5,529 nucleotides of DNA, from assembly GCF_006345805.1 (NCBI RefSeq), contig NW_021829859.1:1-5529 (forward strand), in the 5' to 3' direction. This stretch comes from Octopus sinensis (taxonomy: Eukaryota). Numbering within the stretch: the first letter of the stretch is position 1; the number at the start of each line of letters is the position of its first letter. This document shows positions 1 through 5,529 of this stretch, piece after piece. A program made the translations under genes and the position numbers. Under the pieces are notes generated by a model, which saw only the letters and a list, made by a program, of their open reading frames with translations, did no database searches and had not been told where the DNA came from.

Positions 1-427
1 GCATACAGGCTCAAAGCATACAGGCTCAGAAGCATACAGGCTCAGAAGCATACAGGCTCAGAAGCATACAGGCTCAGAAGCATACAGGCTCAGAAGCATA
101 CAGGCTCAGAAGCATACAGGCTCAGAAGCATACAGGCTTAGAAGCATACAGGCTCAGAAGCATACAGGCTCAGAGGCATACAGGCTCAGAAGCATCAGGC
201 TAGAAGCATACAGGCTTAGAAGCATACAGGCTTAGAAGCATACAGCTCAGAAGAATACAGGCTTAGAAGCATACAGGCTTAGAAGCATACAGGCTTAGAA
301 GCATACAGGCTTAGAAGCATACAGGCTTAGAAGCATAAAGGCTTAGAAGATACAGGCTCAGAAGCATACAGGCTCAGAAGCATACAGGCTTAGAAGCATA
401 CAGGCTCAGAAGCATACAGGCTCAGAA
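1..427. repeat. Tandem minisatellite, 16-bp unit GCATACAGGCT(C/T)AGAA, about 27 copies, truncated by the window start
   Basis: Head-to-tail copies are directly visible, with C/T variants (ctcagaa/cttagaa) and a few units shortened by single-base deletions. There are no spacers. Confidence 0.97.
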
Positions 428-677
428 GCAGACGGGCCTAGAAGGCTCAGAAGCATACGGGCCTAGAAGGCTCAAAAGCATACGGGCCTAGAAGGCTCAG
501 AAGCAGACGGGCCTAGAAGGCTCAAAAGCATACGGGCCTAGAAGGCTCAGAAGCAGACGGGCCTAGAAGGCTCAAAAGCATACGGGCCTAGAAGGCTCAG
601 AAGCAGACGGGCCTAGAAGGCTCAAAAGCATACGGGCCTAGAAGGCTCAGAAGCAGACGGGCCTAGAAGGCTCAGAA
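428..677. repeat. Tandem minisatellite, 25-bp unit GCA(T/G)ACGGGCCTAGAAGGCTCA(G/A)AA x10, with a 50-bp higher-order dimer
   Basis: Ten 25-bp units start at 428, 453, ... 653. From 478 they alternate gcatac...ctcagaa / gcagac...ctcaaaa (the last unit ends ctcagaa). Confidence 0.96.
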
Positions 678-819
678 ACATAAACCTACTTTCTTCATAA
701 GTCTCATCAGTCATAGACAGACAAAGCGGACGAACCATGGAAGAGCTCGAATGCCCAAAGCAATCGTCTCGTCAAAATTACTTTCCGCACTAAGTTTCTG
801 TCTCGCTCTTCTTTCTTAC

Positions 820-846
820 AATAAAATTCTTCATTCATTCATTCAT
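820..846 (+). repeat. AATAAA followed by a (TTCA)4 microsatellite; possible 3' tail of a non-LTR retroelement
   Basis: AATAAA at 820-825 and ttcattcattcattcat at 830-846. The repeat is seen directly; the retroelement-tail reading is inference. Confidence 0.4.
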
Positions 847-859
847 AATGTTGTTTAAC

Positions 860-868
860 TATATAAAA
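860..868 (+). promoter_or_regulatory. Putative TATA box of the H3 gene
   Basis: TATATAAAA about 45 nt upstream of the H3 ATG at 914. The AT-rich context weakens the inference. Confidence 0.4.
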
Positions 869-913
869 CAAAAATAACTAGCCTGAAACTGTTCTGTCTG
901 AAATAAAAAAAAT

Positions 914-1338
914 ATGGCTAGAACTAAACAAACTGCTCGAAAATCTACTGGAGCAAAAGTTCCAAGGAAACAATTGTCTGCAAAATCTGCTCGCAAGTCT
1001 GTTTCACATTTGGAGGGGTAAAGAAACCTCATCGATTTCGACCTGGAGTTGTTGCAATGCGAGAAAAGACGCGATATCAAAAGAGCACTGATTTGTTACT
1101 ACGAAAACTTCCATTCCAGAGACTCGTGAGAGAAACCGCTCAGTTTATCAAAACTGATTTGCGTTTTCAATCGTCAGCGATTGTCGCTCTCCAAGAAGCG
1201 GCAGAGAGTTACCTAGTTGGAATTTTTGAAGATAGTAATTTGTGCGCAATTCACGGAAAAAGAGTAACTATAATGCCAAACGATATGCATTTATCGAGAA
1301 GAATTCGAGGTGAAAAACATAATTTGTATTTTAAATAA
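914..1338 (+). pseudogene. H3: Histone H3 (divergent), frameshifted as assembled; pseudogene or sequencing error
   Basis: ATG 914 gives [32 protein letters not shown], then a premature TAA at 1019-1021. From 1012 a shifted frame continues [41 protein letters not shown]...[14 protein letters not shown]...RRIRGEK to TAA 1336-1338. A likely original stop lies at 1320-1322. Confidence 0.95.
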
Positions 1339-1548
1339 AAAATGATTTATTGTTTGGATAATTCTGAGACAATTTTTAATTTTTTGTTGAAGTTTGTAGA
1401 AAATGTAATGTTGCACCTCGTTTAGATAAAAAGAGGATACTAGTTGTGTATTTTAGAAAATATATAATTAAAAATTGTTTAATACGGATTTGTTGGATAA
1501 TTAATATATAGCAGGAAACAACAAAAACCTATAACCATGAACAAGCTA

Positions 1549-1744
1549 TAGTGAACAAAAATAAAAACTGAACATGCTTTTTCTTATAAATTTACAATTG
1601 GACAATATTGCAAATATGTCTCAAATTTATTTTTAACATAGATTAAAGTATTTCACATTTTTTTAGTTTTTTTAATAAATATATATTTATGCCCTTTTTT
1701 ATGATATCGAAAATTTAAAACCAAAAAAATACTGAACAAATTTA
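1549..1744 (+). repeat. Left long terminal inverted repeat of the Tc1 element
   Basis: Aligns by eye with the reverse complement of 2834-3026. The outer 24 bp are near-perfect, the middle is degenerate, and the inner TGAACAAATTTA (1733-1744) is exact. Confidence 0.8.
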
Positions 1745-1834
1745 AATTACTTATATATATCAAAAAAAGGTTTTATTTTTTAAAATTCGTTCAAATTCAA
1801 TCATTTGTAACCTCTCTACGTAGCCAATCATTGA

Positions 1835-2832
1835 ACATTTGAAGAAAAAGGCAGAATAATTGGCATGTATAAATCTGGAAAAACATACAGAGAAATACAA
1901 GATATCACGAAAAAGTATGCTTGGCACGATATTGCAAATTATCAAAAGCTATTCAAATAAGTGCTTGACGGACAAAAAAGTTGGGTCTGGTTGACCATTC
2001 GTTGCTCAATCGTCAAAAATATTTTAAATTAAAGAGGCTTGAAAAGTGGATGTCAATTTCAACTGTTTTTAATTTACTAAAACATTTACAGAAAAAAAGG
2101 GAAATCAGTAACAGCTCAAACAATAAAATAATACACGAAAAATTGGTCTGAATGCATATCCGCCCACGAAAAGACCATTTCTTACCAAAAACCCTAAACT
2201 TCAATGATTAAAGCTATGCCAAACATGCAATATGCTCTCAAAATATTTCGGGAGCGAGTTATTTTAAGTGATGAAAGTAAATTTAATATGTAAAATAGTG
2301 ATGTAAGAACTTTAGTATGGAGAAATCGCAAGGAAAAATATTTAACAAACAATCTTACAAAACAGTAAAATTCGGTAAAGGAACTATCATGAACTATCAT
2401 GCCATAATCAATATTGGATTCATTAATTTGGTTTTGATAAAAGAGAAGATTGGTGGAGCTTTGTATGTTAACATATTAACGAATAATATGATCTCATTTC
2501 TGAACAAAATCGAACATAAAGATCCTAGTTTCCAACAAGACAATGATCTGAAACATACTTCGGCAATAGCAAAGAGCTTTTTTCAAGTAAATAATATCGA
2601 ATTACTACTATGGCCAACACAAAGCCCAGATTTAAACCCTATAGAGAATGTTTGGGCCTTTATTAAAGAAAAAATCAAAGGAAGAGAATTTTTGAAAAAG
2701 GAACATTTATTTGCAAAAATATCATCCATTTGGAATTAACTCAAAATAGAATACGCAAAAAGTCTTATTAATAGCATGCCAGGCCGAATACTAGATGTAA
2801 TTAGAGCTAATGGAGGACATAATAGATATTAA
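1835..2832 (+). pseudogene. Tc1-like transposase, inactivated by stops and frameshifts
   Basis: Motifs in order: HTH-like TFEEKGRIIGMYKSGKTYREIQ (from 1835); GSG*P (GRPR motif, TGA 1992-1994); KRPFLT; VILSDESKFN (first D at 2270); KTVKFGKG; FQQDND; WPTQSPDLNPIENVW with 34 residues between D and E; after the stop at 2737-2739, LINSMPGRILDVIRANGGHNRY* ending at 2832. The start codon was not identified. Confidence 0.93.
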
Positions 2833-2833
2833 A

Positions 2834-3026
2834 TAAATTTGTTCATTTTTTGGGTTCTGAATTATGAATGAATGGAAAACCGTATAAATATAATATTTTT
2901 TAGACAAACTAAAAAATAAAGCAAAACTTTATTTAATTTTATAAATCAATAGATGTTATTTTTTAAATATTGTTTCATAGTAAATTCATGAGAAAATGCT
3001 TTTTCAGTTTTTATTTTTGTTCACTG
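2834..3026 (-). repeat. Right long terminal inverted repeat of the Tc1 element
   Basis: Ends ...ttcagtttttatttttgttcactg followed by TA. The inner TAAATTTGTTCA is at 2834-2845, just after the transposase stop. Confidence 0.8.
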
Positions 3027-3277
3027 TATATATTTACTATTTTTTGGGATAATTTAGCCTAAGTAAATAAATTATATTGGACTAAAAAAATATTTCGCCA
3101 ATGATAAAATAACACAGTATTGCGATATTTTATCTATAATTACTTCTAAATGTTTATTCGTTAATTGTGTTTGAAATTTTTTTGAAATTCGTTAAAAAAA
3201 CTTAACTGGTTGATCTATTGTATTTCGAAAACAATATTACAAAATAACAGTGCATTATTCAAATAATTAATTTAAAG

Positions 3278-3637
3278 TTAGGAAGTTGGTTTAGGAGTTT
3301 CTGCAGTTTTGCGAATCATAAATCCACCAGATGAAATAATAGCTTTCTGAGTTAATTCTTTTAATTCGTCGTCATTTCCAATTGCAACGACAATGTGACG
3401 TGTTTTAATTCTTCTTTTTCCACATTTTACTGCTGTATTTCCAGCAAGTTCAAGCATTTCAGCCACAGCATATTCCAATACTGCGCACATATATACTGCG
3501 GCAGGAATTCCTACTCGCATTCGGGTTTCATGACGGAGACACCGGTGAATGCGTCCAACTGGAAACTGTAACCCGGCCCGAACGGATTTGCTTTTAGCCT
3601 TTGACCGTACTTTTCCTCCTTTTCCTCTTGAAGACAT
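3278..3637 (-). CDS. H2A: Histone H2A, divergent, with a shortened non-canonical C-terminus (119 aa)
   Basis: Intact ORF with [34 protein letters not shown] and GG motifs of H2A. Confidence 0.95.
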
Positions 3638-3805
3638 TATACTCTGCTAACTATTTTTTATTTACATAATAAAAAAAATGGCATTCCGAAATTTAGTTGA
3701 AAATTTTTTTCGGAATGGTCCTTTTTTGCATTAGTCGAAAAAATTTGGCAATGATACTTTTTTTGCATAGGTTGAAAATAGTGTTTATTTAGAGAATTTT
3801 TCCTA
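3638..3805. promoter_or_regulatory. 168-bp divergent (putatively bidirectional) promoter between H2A and H4
   Basis: Start codons point away from each other. Contains a 10-bp inverted repeat (3682-3691/3708-3717), two TTTTTTGCAT and two GTTGAAAAT motifs. Confidence 0.65.
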
Positions 3806-4114
3806 ATGTCTGGACGTGGTAAAGGTGGCAAAGGAGGAAAGAGTGGTGCAAAACGATTTCGAAAGATATTAATTGACAATATACAAGGAATTACTAAGCC
3901 AGCAATAAGAAGACTATGTCGAAGAGGGGGTGTTCGAAGAATTTCTGGAAAAATTTACGAGGAGACACGTTCTGTCCTTAAGATTTTTATTGAGCAAACT
4001 GTTCGTGATTGTATTTCTTATACTGAACATGCCAAAAGAAAAACTGTTATCGCAATGGACGTTGTTAATGCCTTGAAACGTCAAGGTAGGACAATTTACG
4101 GATTTGGTGGATAA
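3806..4114 (+). CDS. H4: Histone H4, divergent (102 aa)
   Basis: Intact [13 protein letters not shown]...[14 protein letters not shown]...[10 protein letters not shown]...[20 protein letters not shown] at 4133-4138. Confidence 0.98.
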
Positions 4115-4336
4115 ATTATACATAATTTTTTTAATAAAATACATTGATATTCCTTACAAATTAACCAGATAAAAATTAGCAATTTCATAAATATACTAAC
4201 TAGCTACCAAACGACGGTGAAATACTACGATTGCTTTTTTAATTGGTAAGAAATCTTGTTGAAATAACAAAAAGTATATTTATACAGTAAATTAGAGTTA
4301 TATCGTTTGAAAAATTTATTTTTTTCTAATAGTTTA

Positions 4337-4377
4337 TTTTTTTGCATCTGTTTATAATTATGTTTATTTAGAGAATT
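4337..4377 (+). repeat. Dispersed copy of the H4 upstream/leader sequence (3758-3798)
   Basis: TTTTTTTGCAT-N13-TGTTTATTTAGAGAATT occurs at both places. The 11-bp and 17-bp blocks are identical and equally spaced. Confidence 0.8.
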
Positions 4378-4379
4378 AT

Positions 4380-4628
4380 TTGCGAATGGACCCCAGAGCT
4401 CCGGCCAATCGGGCAATGGACGATTATTTCTCCGAACATGGAGACAAATATCGTGGAAGACCTAGATCCACTCTTCCGACAGTTCTTGAAAGGGATCTCA
4501 AACTTCATGGCAAAAGTTTCAAAAACTGGGACGACCTAGAATCTTTACGGGATCTCGCCCGCAACAGAAGGGCATGGACAAGGATGGTCCAGAAGATTGT
4601 TTCGCTTGTGACACGTGTGGGATTATAA
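4380..4628 (+). mobile_element. 5'-truncated non-LTR retrotransposon fragment (RTE-like ORF C-terminus)
   Basis: LRM...PA..AM..YF...RGRPRST....L.RDL...DL..L..LA.NR..W matches the C-terminal pattern of RTE-clade ORFs. It is visibly GC-richer than its flanks and the frame is open. Confidence 0.75.
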
Positions 4629-4667
4629 CTTTGTTTATGTTCCTACGGAATGTGTTATAATAACTAA

Positions 4668-5252
4668 AAACATCAAAATTGATATTAATTCGGATTTATT
4701 TAAAATTGATTTGACGTATTAATTCATTCTTTTTCTTTTTGAGCCATTCCTTAGCTCTTTAACTGCAATCTCTTGTCGACCATCACCAATCTGATTTCAA
4801 TCGTCAACTAAGGCGCTGTTTTCAATCAATGCAGCGATTAGATGATACTTTTTCGAAAAAATTCGGATTATTATCAGCACTGCCGAGAACACATAAAAAA
4901 CCAAAATCAATTTAGTTCCTTTGTGTCGCGCAGACTACCCTTTGCACAAATCGTATTCAAAGCCCTTTCCGTTTCGTTTTAGCAAAGAATTTCTATTGCC
5001 ATTCTCGAGAACAGTCTGAGAATTTCCGTACATAAATGACTCTATTAACTTTTAAATAACTATAAATTGATTATTATTAACCAAGACCATACAGTGCAAG
5101 CCATCTTCTTAGTAAGTAATAACTCATTACTACTAATGAGACAACGCTTTATGAAGTCTAAATAAGCTTTGTCGTCTAGATATCTTTGTATCGCAACCAA
5201 CAATATTTAAAGCTATAAAGTTTGTGATGTAGTCACAAATGATAAATATGGC
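4668..5252 (-). mobile_element. Highly degenerate non-LTR (CR1/L2/Jockey-like) reverse transcriptase relic
   Basis: Collinear minus-strand peptides across frameshifts: AIFIICDYIT (5252-5223), AYLDF.KA (5167-5153), LLLTKK/ALYGLG, LIESFMYGNSQTVLENG (from 5048), GSL, VDD (4808-4800), KEWL (4752-4741), ILNKS...ILMF. Confidence 0.5.
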
Positions 5253-5529
5253 TCACTCGACACACTCAACGTTTAGTGGCAATTTTCCGATTGAAATCAA
5301 TGATGTCAGATTTACTCGATGTAATTGTGACAGAACATCAGTGTTTTATTCATAATCACGAGTAACGGAGTTCTCGGATTTGAAGTGTATTCCGGCTCAA
5401 AAAATTTTTTGTAACTTATCCAAATTCCTAGATGGAGTCCCCTCAAGATGAGAAAAATTTCCAAAAACTAGGATCAATAATTACTTAATTTTTTATTATT
5501 TTCGGTTTTGGGTTTAGTTAATAAAGTTT

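Follow-up and report, generated by a model that had tools for sequence, protein, structure and literature searches.

Replication-coupled core histones are typically encoded in high copy number by homogeneous genes, and divergent histones are carried by viruses, among them the Medusavirus set and the H4 of bracoviruses. In Giardia, H4 is 78% (over the histone fold) and H3 60% identical to the canonical proteins, and 125 bp of DNA are wrapped (PMC9396995, in its accessible part). Transcripts of metazoan histone variants carry poly(A) tails (PMC13525598, as excerpted), and the main O. sinensis histone clusters lie on three chromosomes according to the available portion of a 2025 survey (PMC12210499). 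Here we describe a diverged H3-H2A-H4 unit in a 5,529-nt stretch of DNA filed as Octopus sinensis (contig NW_021829859.1), the whole of which we call the window. We consider it likely that the unit encodes the core histones of a parasite that is itself a fast-evolving animal, in all probability a dicyemid, and that was sequenced together with the octopus.

Three intronless histone genes and a decayed Tc1 element

The window contains intronless genes for H3, H2A and H4 in a cluster, all three divergent from canonical histones (Table 1). An earlier note on this DNA had described such a cluster, with intact frames for H2A and H4 and a span of about 1.7 kb once a Tc1 insertion is removed; coordinates and Pfam and PDB matches agree with it, both frames are open, and ~1.72 kb remains after the subtraction. 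The Pfam Histone family matches the H3 part at E 1.8e-37 and H2A at E 3.4e-8, H4 matches solved H4 structures at E 4e-49, and each protein combines a histone-fold sequence match with family-type tails. These matches are real histones, their strength being far above chance. H2A and H4 stand head to head across a gap of 168 bp, which is presumably the shared promoter of both genes.

Table 1. Features located in the window
Feature	Position	Strand	Basis or remark
Minisatellite, 16-mer x27	1-430	.	Flank of unit
Minisatellite, 25-mer x10	418-677	.	Flank of unit
H3 gene, divergent family	914..1338	+	ATG at 914, Pfam Histone, run X1 contigs
Decayed Tc1, DD34E	1547..3028	+	Inverted ends, TA flanks, DDE_3; sits in H3-H2A spacer
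H2A gene, 119 aa, open frame	3278..3637	-	Pfam Histone, PDB match
AT-rich H2A-H4 spacer, 168 bp	3638..3805	.	Presumed shared promoter
H4 gene, 102 aa, open frame	3806..4114	+	Match to solved H4
Stretch also in high-depth run X19 contigs	4697..4906	.	Without H2B, Pfam or Rfam signal

The Tc1 insertion mentioned in that note was borne out; it lies between H3 and H2A. Its inverted ends (~213 nt) are imperfect, TA stands at 1547-1548 and 3027-3028, and the transposase, which matches DDE_3 at E 1.3e-11, is broken by several stops and frameshifts; 34 residues lie between the second D and the E, as counted in the translation. The element thus has the terminal inverted repeats, TA target duplication and DDE transposase of the DD34E Tc1 group. 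Depth in sequencing run X1 does not fall below the thousands over the element, so its fixation probably preceded the amplification or homogenisation of the unit, with which it was apparently amplified. One contig of run X19 links position 1510, across letters not given, to 3063, consistent with an empty site.

The flanks had been singled out for a search for H2B and H1. No H1 was found in the window, and H2B was absent from 670-920 and 4121-5529; the unit may continue beyond the window. With 28 H2B ORFs as queries, tblastn gave no match in the window, nor did Pfam on its six frames. A frameshift-tolerant H2B profile scored 14.8 (shuffles, 14.1 ± 1.5) and a short-intron-tolerant profile 41.0 (shuffles, 34.0 ± 5.8; positive control, 499.8). 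The region 4700-5050, which had been likened to H2B by eye, was dropped after tblastn, Pfam and both tolerant profiles, and it folds no better than its shuffles (z of -0.24 and -1.79). The stretch at 4697..4906 is possibly part of the ancestral histone unit. No tRNA was found in the window, and an Rfam scan of it returned two sub-threshold matches only, both in the minisatellite.

Metazoan replication-dependent clusters carry a 3' stem-loop (Rfam Histone3 type). No such match was obtained in the window at E up to 1, and a stem-loop consensus pattern occurs 0 times in the window, whereas 21 of the 80 histone loci used as controls have it. AATAAA is present 3' of H3 and of H4; none lies within ~110 nt after H2A, so polyadenylation of these mRNAs is a guess. 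At 20-30% GC, AATAAA is frequent by chance.

Joint divergence of H3, H2A and H4 under purifying selection

All three proteins had been called far from canonical. This stands for H4 (81.4% identical to human H4), for the intact family H3 (P0260, 136 aa, of which 106 residues or 77.9% equal canonical H3) and for H2A (55-60% identical to canonical H2As), but part of the divergence seen in the window is specific to this copy. We aligned the contigs of four sequencing runs on 700-5529, bearing in mind that contigs drop rare variants. In the window, the H3 frame from ATG 914 stops at 1019-1021 and the remainder lies in the frame of 1012-1338; one base is missing near 1007 and one near 1312 by comparison with run X1 contigs. 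The additional base after 1007 is present in 3 X1 contigs (7583 of 15355 summed depth) and that after 1312 in 2. The window also differs from all covering X1 depth at 1067-1071 (4 letters), 3163 and 3403, the last corresponding to P79T in H2A. Since X1 carries the extra bases and an intact H3 of the divergent family is found on 8 contigs, the longest of 428 kb, the frameshift is limited to the window copy, where it reflects either an error of the consensus or a copy that is dead and rare; the contigs fit both equally.

By established residue numbering and roles, the family H3 retains K4, K9, S10, K14, K18, K23, K27, S28, K36, K79 and C110, and its S-A-I-V at positions 87-90 matches neither H3.1 nor H3.3. 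The L1 region of H2A (ETRMR) is rewritten and one residue shorter, and its C-terminal docking stretch is heavily substituted, hydrophobic residues having been swapped for polar ones. Acidic residues occupy all six acidic-patch positions, as these are named in the accessible part of PMC9396995. The lysine equivalent to K118 is retained, whereas octopus-labelled copies have Pro at the position of K119; the best PDB match is chain 6dzt_C, with which the tail is common. H4 shows 20 differences from the human protein, among them the loss of Leu10 and H18F, and retains K5, K8, K12, K16, K20 and R45. From these residues we infer that the octamer of the divergent set would be normal, except that H2A and H3 would hold each other less tightly where the DNA ends. 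In the ESM Atlas, H2A falls into generic H2A clusters, and the innexin described below into the innexin fold; neither provides taxonomy.

Two sets of relatives without an octopus label, and no others, appear among the matches listed. One is on an ant-labelled (Vollenhovia emeryi) 2255-bp contig (H2A 72% and H4 93% identical to the window proteins) and the other on a 2975-bp contig (H2A 75%, H4 92%, H3 93%), the linkage of the genes within each set being read from the shared contig size. The remaining listed H2A matches have 50-61% identity, compared with 72-76% between clade members, and the H3-H2A-H4 set is conserved in at least three lineages. In an H2A profile search of 1.84 billion representatives, the ant-labelled protein reached 247 bits and single-domain canonical H2As at most 135 bits (best 150 of 9480), and of 516 proteins collected here, 9 contain the L1-loop motif, each a member of the divergent clade. 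The histone phylogenies that the earlier note had called for recover each gene as a single clade (H2A, 100/100; H4, SH-aLRT 100), but the H2A and H4 trees leave the clade unplaced, with long branch warnings.

Run X6 differs from the window at 28 places, 25 of them displayed, with 5 window-only letters set aside. Among the visible coding differences, 18 of 20 are synonymous, giving a pN/pS of 0.035 for one relative and few sites, or 0.087 in the upper case in which all 3 undisplayed sites count as replacements. The preponderance of silent changes indicates that the histone genes are functional, so the decaying orphan copies that had been envisaged are refuted, and the joint divergence of H3, H2A and H4 proposed in the same note has taken place under purifying selection. 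The X6 contigs cover the three histone genes and little else, a pattern that does not amount to evidence of expression.

A repeated unit and its carrier

The H2A cluster comprises 6 members with at least 12 accessions, 6 of 6 filed as Octopus sinensis, on contigs of 10.7-300 kb. Near-identical histone records of the family (95-100% identical) lie on O. sinensis contigs of 10-430 kb, and none of those found is on a contig above 430 kb or of chromosome scale. Single X1 contigs on the unit have depths of 4767 and 6178, the flank 4867-5313 has 721, and diverged Tc1 relatives have 29-97. Run X19, which bears another organism label, contains the histone genes at depths in the tens of thousands, while of the six Tc1-like pieces listed five have depths of 520-601 and one has 40; its cover is missing over 4242-4402. 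Near-identical pieces of the unit are present in run X5 at depths of 2.5-3.8. Contig depth is no copy number, and the unit copies may number, very roughly, tens to hundreds. The genes are intronless, multi-copy and clustered, as in replication-dependent clusters. At least half of the window's sequence words were found in 4 of 24 listed runs, all from one sample. No RNA run is among those listed with the words; five runs that we guessed to be RNA, under X1's species label, contain next to none of them, which speaks neither for nor against expression.

A gene model on a 49.8-kb contig fuses an identical H4 to an innexin (XP_029656690; PF00876, E 5.7e-64), which makes the carrier an animal unless the contig is chimeric. 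The model is an automatic fusion and chimerism is conceivable; moreover, an innexin indicates "animal" and not "non-octopus", and the association of an animal genome with a cephalopod would hold equally for an octopus gene. Neither O. vulgaris nor O. bimaculoides appears among the 120 listed matches of each H2A, H4 and H3 search, in a collection that may omit both. O. vulgaris split from O. sinensis ~2.5 My ago (bioRxiv 2023.05.16.540928, as excerpted); given so recent a split and so deep a clade, the lack of any other cephalopod among the matches listed counts against octopus origin, as do the location of the main O. sinensis clusters on three chromosomes and the missing stem-loop.

Sources available in part report that O. 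sinensis hosts Dicyema japonicum (genome 67.5 Mb, 36.7% GC, 49% repeats; PMC6736024), that dicyemids occur in 75% of 227 cephalopod samples (PMC12953835), and that one dicyemid assembly itself contained cephalopod DNA (PMC6543705). Among the fast-evolving animals that accompany octopus tissue, dicyemids would seem to be the best fit. Very short spliceosomal introns characterise dicyemids, and the window contains no spliced gene that could show them. By host association and exclusion, with no record named for a dicyemid among the matches, we rate it slightly better than an even chance that the carrier is a dicyemid, a kidney parasite of octopuses. Since an ant cannot host a dicyemid, the ant-labelled contig must then be cross-contamination by the high-copy unit, for which the trace in run X5, under another organism label, suggests a possible route.

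The window shows one copy of this repeated H3-H2A-H4 unit. If a parasite is the carrier, the unit would have been sequenced along with the octopus, and its proteins would be the main core histones of that parasite, wrongly filed under the octopus. The copies would have been homogenised by concerted evolution, with the dead Tc1 riding along, and the mRNAs would end at AATAAA-type signals in place of the animal histone stem-loop. The octamer would be otherwise ordinary, completed by an H2B not found in the window, and the altered L1 loop and C-terminal docking stretch of H2A may loosen the DNA ends, as has been reported for Giardia. Several observations weigh against this account. Every near-identical named record bears the octopus label; host tandem arrays, too, end in unplaced contigs, and five H2B-containing groups lie in the same accession range; AATAAA is missing near H2A, H2B was not found, and the trees leave the clade unplaced.

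The principal alternative is that the unit is the octopus's own amplified, polyadenylated H3/H2A/H4 variant array, for example of the germ line or spermatids, existing beside the canonical chromosomal clusters and drawing its H2B from the canonical set. Because the octopus has separate chromosomal histone clusters, the divergent set, if made of octopus genes, is a variant set. We regard this as unlikely, and assign the same low probability to its extension, in which the variants, joined by canonical H2B, would build a separate type of nucleosome with loosely wrapped DNA, confined to one lineage, for example the germ line. The exclusive filing of near-identical named records as O. sinensis, the high depth in a genome-scale run and the occurrence of related copies in runs labelled as two or more further organisms all speak for it, and a missing stem-loop fits polyadenylated variant mRNAs. 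Of the 12 accession groups that include a divergent member, 1 lists an H2B (one H2B entry among the divergent records), compared with 5 of the 6 remaining groups with several entries, the groups being built from gene-id proximity and only a proxy for contigs. However, H4 is likewise listed in only 3 of the 12, although it is part of the unit, which indicates patchy annotation, and H2B may be missing for that reason alone. Despite the depth of the clade, the listed matches include none named for another cephalopod, no family record is on a chromosome-scale contig, and half or more of the window's words occur in runs from one sample only. Of the two options that the earlier note had left side by side, the core histones of a parasitic lineage are therefore favoured and the variant set is the weaker.

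A parasite might instead carry the unit as a specialised, germline or stage-specific, set next to more canonical histones. The joint divergence of three histones and the lack of H2B in the unit as seen would suit this, but the copies are numerous and homogeneous, like a main replication-coupled set, and the H3 and H4 tails retain their main modification lysines; we find it quite improbable.

Just as improbable is some other hidden carrier reaching both cephalopods and insects. Candidates would be protists such as microsporidians, myxozoans, helminths, and large DNA viruses or mobile elements equipped with histones. The orthologous H2A-H4 pair on the ant-labelled contig would be explained; similar motifs of the L1 loop and tail are present in microsporidian H2A and H3, and H4 or innexin genes occur in polydnaviruses. 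A microsporidian origin, raised by these motifs, was lowered by the innexin result, since an innexin adjoining an identical H4 argues against fungi and protists. The clade motif occurs in no named helminth, myxozoan or microsporidian protein among the 516, no further clade member is present in the best 150 of the 9480 representatives, and the best metagenome H2A among 80 loci has 60% identity and falls outside the clade. In viral contigs (IMG/VR), 0 of 25 candidate stretches was an H2A relative, and the 10 H4 loci (26-78% identity) all fall outside the clade. Neither nearby hallmark genes nor viral relatives thus mark the unit as a viral cassette: capture by a virus or mobile element, which the earlier note had entertained, gained no support, and its statement that the window has no viral hallmark genes holds.

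Comparison with described histone systems

The sequences are already in databases, under automatic names; one such label, "H2A-beta, sperm-like", is an automatic best-match name. The lists of canonical O. sinensis histones in Table S2 of PMC12210499 include the divergent family as at least 12 of 51 H2A, 5 of 41 H3 and 2 of 31 H4 entries, so the same proteins were counted as canonical octopus histones, and the available portion of that paper does not discuss their divergence or possible foreign origin. No title or abstract among the literature matches listed, which mostly leave subscription journals uncovered, concerns dicyemid histones or these records.

If the carrier is indeed a parasite, these would be undescribed animal core histones, with an H4 diverged to protist level (81% against 78% in Giardia), a remodelled H2A docking stretch and apparently no stem-loop, an unusual condition among the repeated histone units of animals. 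They would offer a direct lead into dicyemid chromatin, and they would mean that a reference animal proteome contains foreign DNA and that the O. sinensis histone count is inflated. The same source, in its available portion, gives 32 canonical H2As in O. vulgaris and 40 in A. fangsiao, so the divergent records are not the sole basis of the histone expansion reported for cephalopods. Were the unit of octopus origin, an array of H3, H4 and H2A variants that evolved together would be most unexpected.

Like the tandem repeats of Drosophila and sea urchin (quintets and quartets), the unit is intronless, clustered, multi-copy and homogenised and contains a head-to-head pair. It differs from them in that its proteins are far more diverged, no 3' stem-loop was found in it, H2A is paired with H4 and not with H2B (neither H2B nor H1 being present in the window), and a dead Tc1 occupies its spacer. 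The viral histones (Marseillevirus doublets, the Medusavirus set and bracovirus H4) are likewise divergent, and the unit lies, as they do, outside the host's canonical clusters, but it lacks doublets, the window is free of viral genes, and no relative was found in IMG/VR. With the mammalian H2A.B, L, P and Q and sperm-type variants it shares a fast-evolving H2A with altered L1 and docking regions. In contrast to these short H2As, its C-terminus is substituted and not truncated (119 aa, with Pro-Lys kept), the acidic patch is intact, and H3 and H4 have diverged too. As in the parasites Giardia and Leishmania, the entire set is diverged, the acidic patch is kept and the C-terminal hydrophobic stretch of H2A is altered; the H3 is far less diverged than that of Giardia (78% versus 60%), and, unlike in both parasites, the carrier is apparently an animal, the H2A tail is of animal type and the genes are highly repeated. 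The histone unit is thus ordinary in kind and unusual in degree.

Probable passenger frame and repeats around the histone genes

Features of the window beside the H3, H2A and H4 genes of the repeated divergent histone unit
Feature	Position	Strand	Remarks
16-mer array passing into related 25-mer array	1–677		Immediately upstream of H3
44-nt repeat, first copy	3758–3801		Copies 84% alike
44-nt repeat, second copy	4337–4380
105-aa open frame	4311–4628	+	RTE-type likeness; no Pfam match
Deeply covered stretch	4697–4906

The 105-aa open frame, which we take to resemble the 3' terminus of a non-LTR retrotransposon of the RTE type, returned zero matches in a Pfam search. When run contigs were aligned to positions 700–5529, X1 depth was high over this frame, which therefore probably travels with the unit as a second passenger. 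The first 44-nt copy lies directly 5' of the H4 start, and the second is reported as preceding the open frame. The two minisatellite arrays are akin, one merging into the other.

Read coverage in runs X19 and X5

Over the stretch at 4697–4906, X19 contigs reach a summed depth (not a copy number) of about 30,000, comparable to the histone genes, but X1 only about 700–1,200. Neither a protein nor an RNA family signal was found there; the stretch may be an unrecognised conserved portion of the unit. Run X5, under a different organism label, holds near-identical unit pieces, Tc1 transposon included, over 1024–3568 at depth 2.5–3.8; these are trace carry-over.

Database relatives

Divergent H4 genes on viral_contigs records (L085, L086–L088 and L089; 61–71% to the query H4) are unrelated to the clade of the window H4. 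Three automatic gene models (P0517, P0149 and P0124), in which the unit's H4 is joined to innexin or unrelated sequence, look like annotation artefacts. An orthologous H2A-H4 pair (P0006 and P0164) in an ant proteome (Vollenhovia emeryi) lies on a 2255-bp contig, probably a contaminant.
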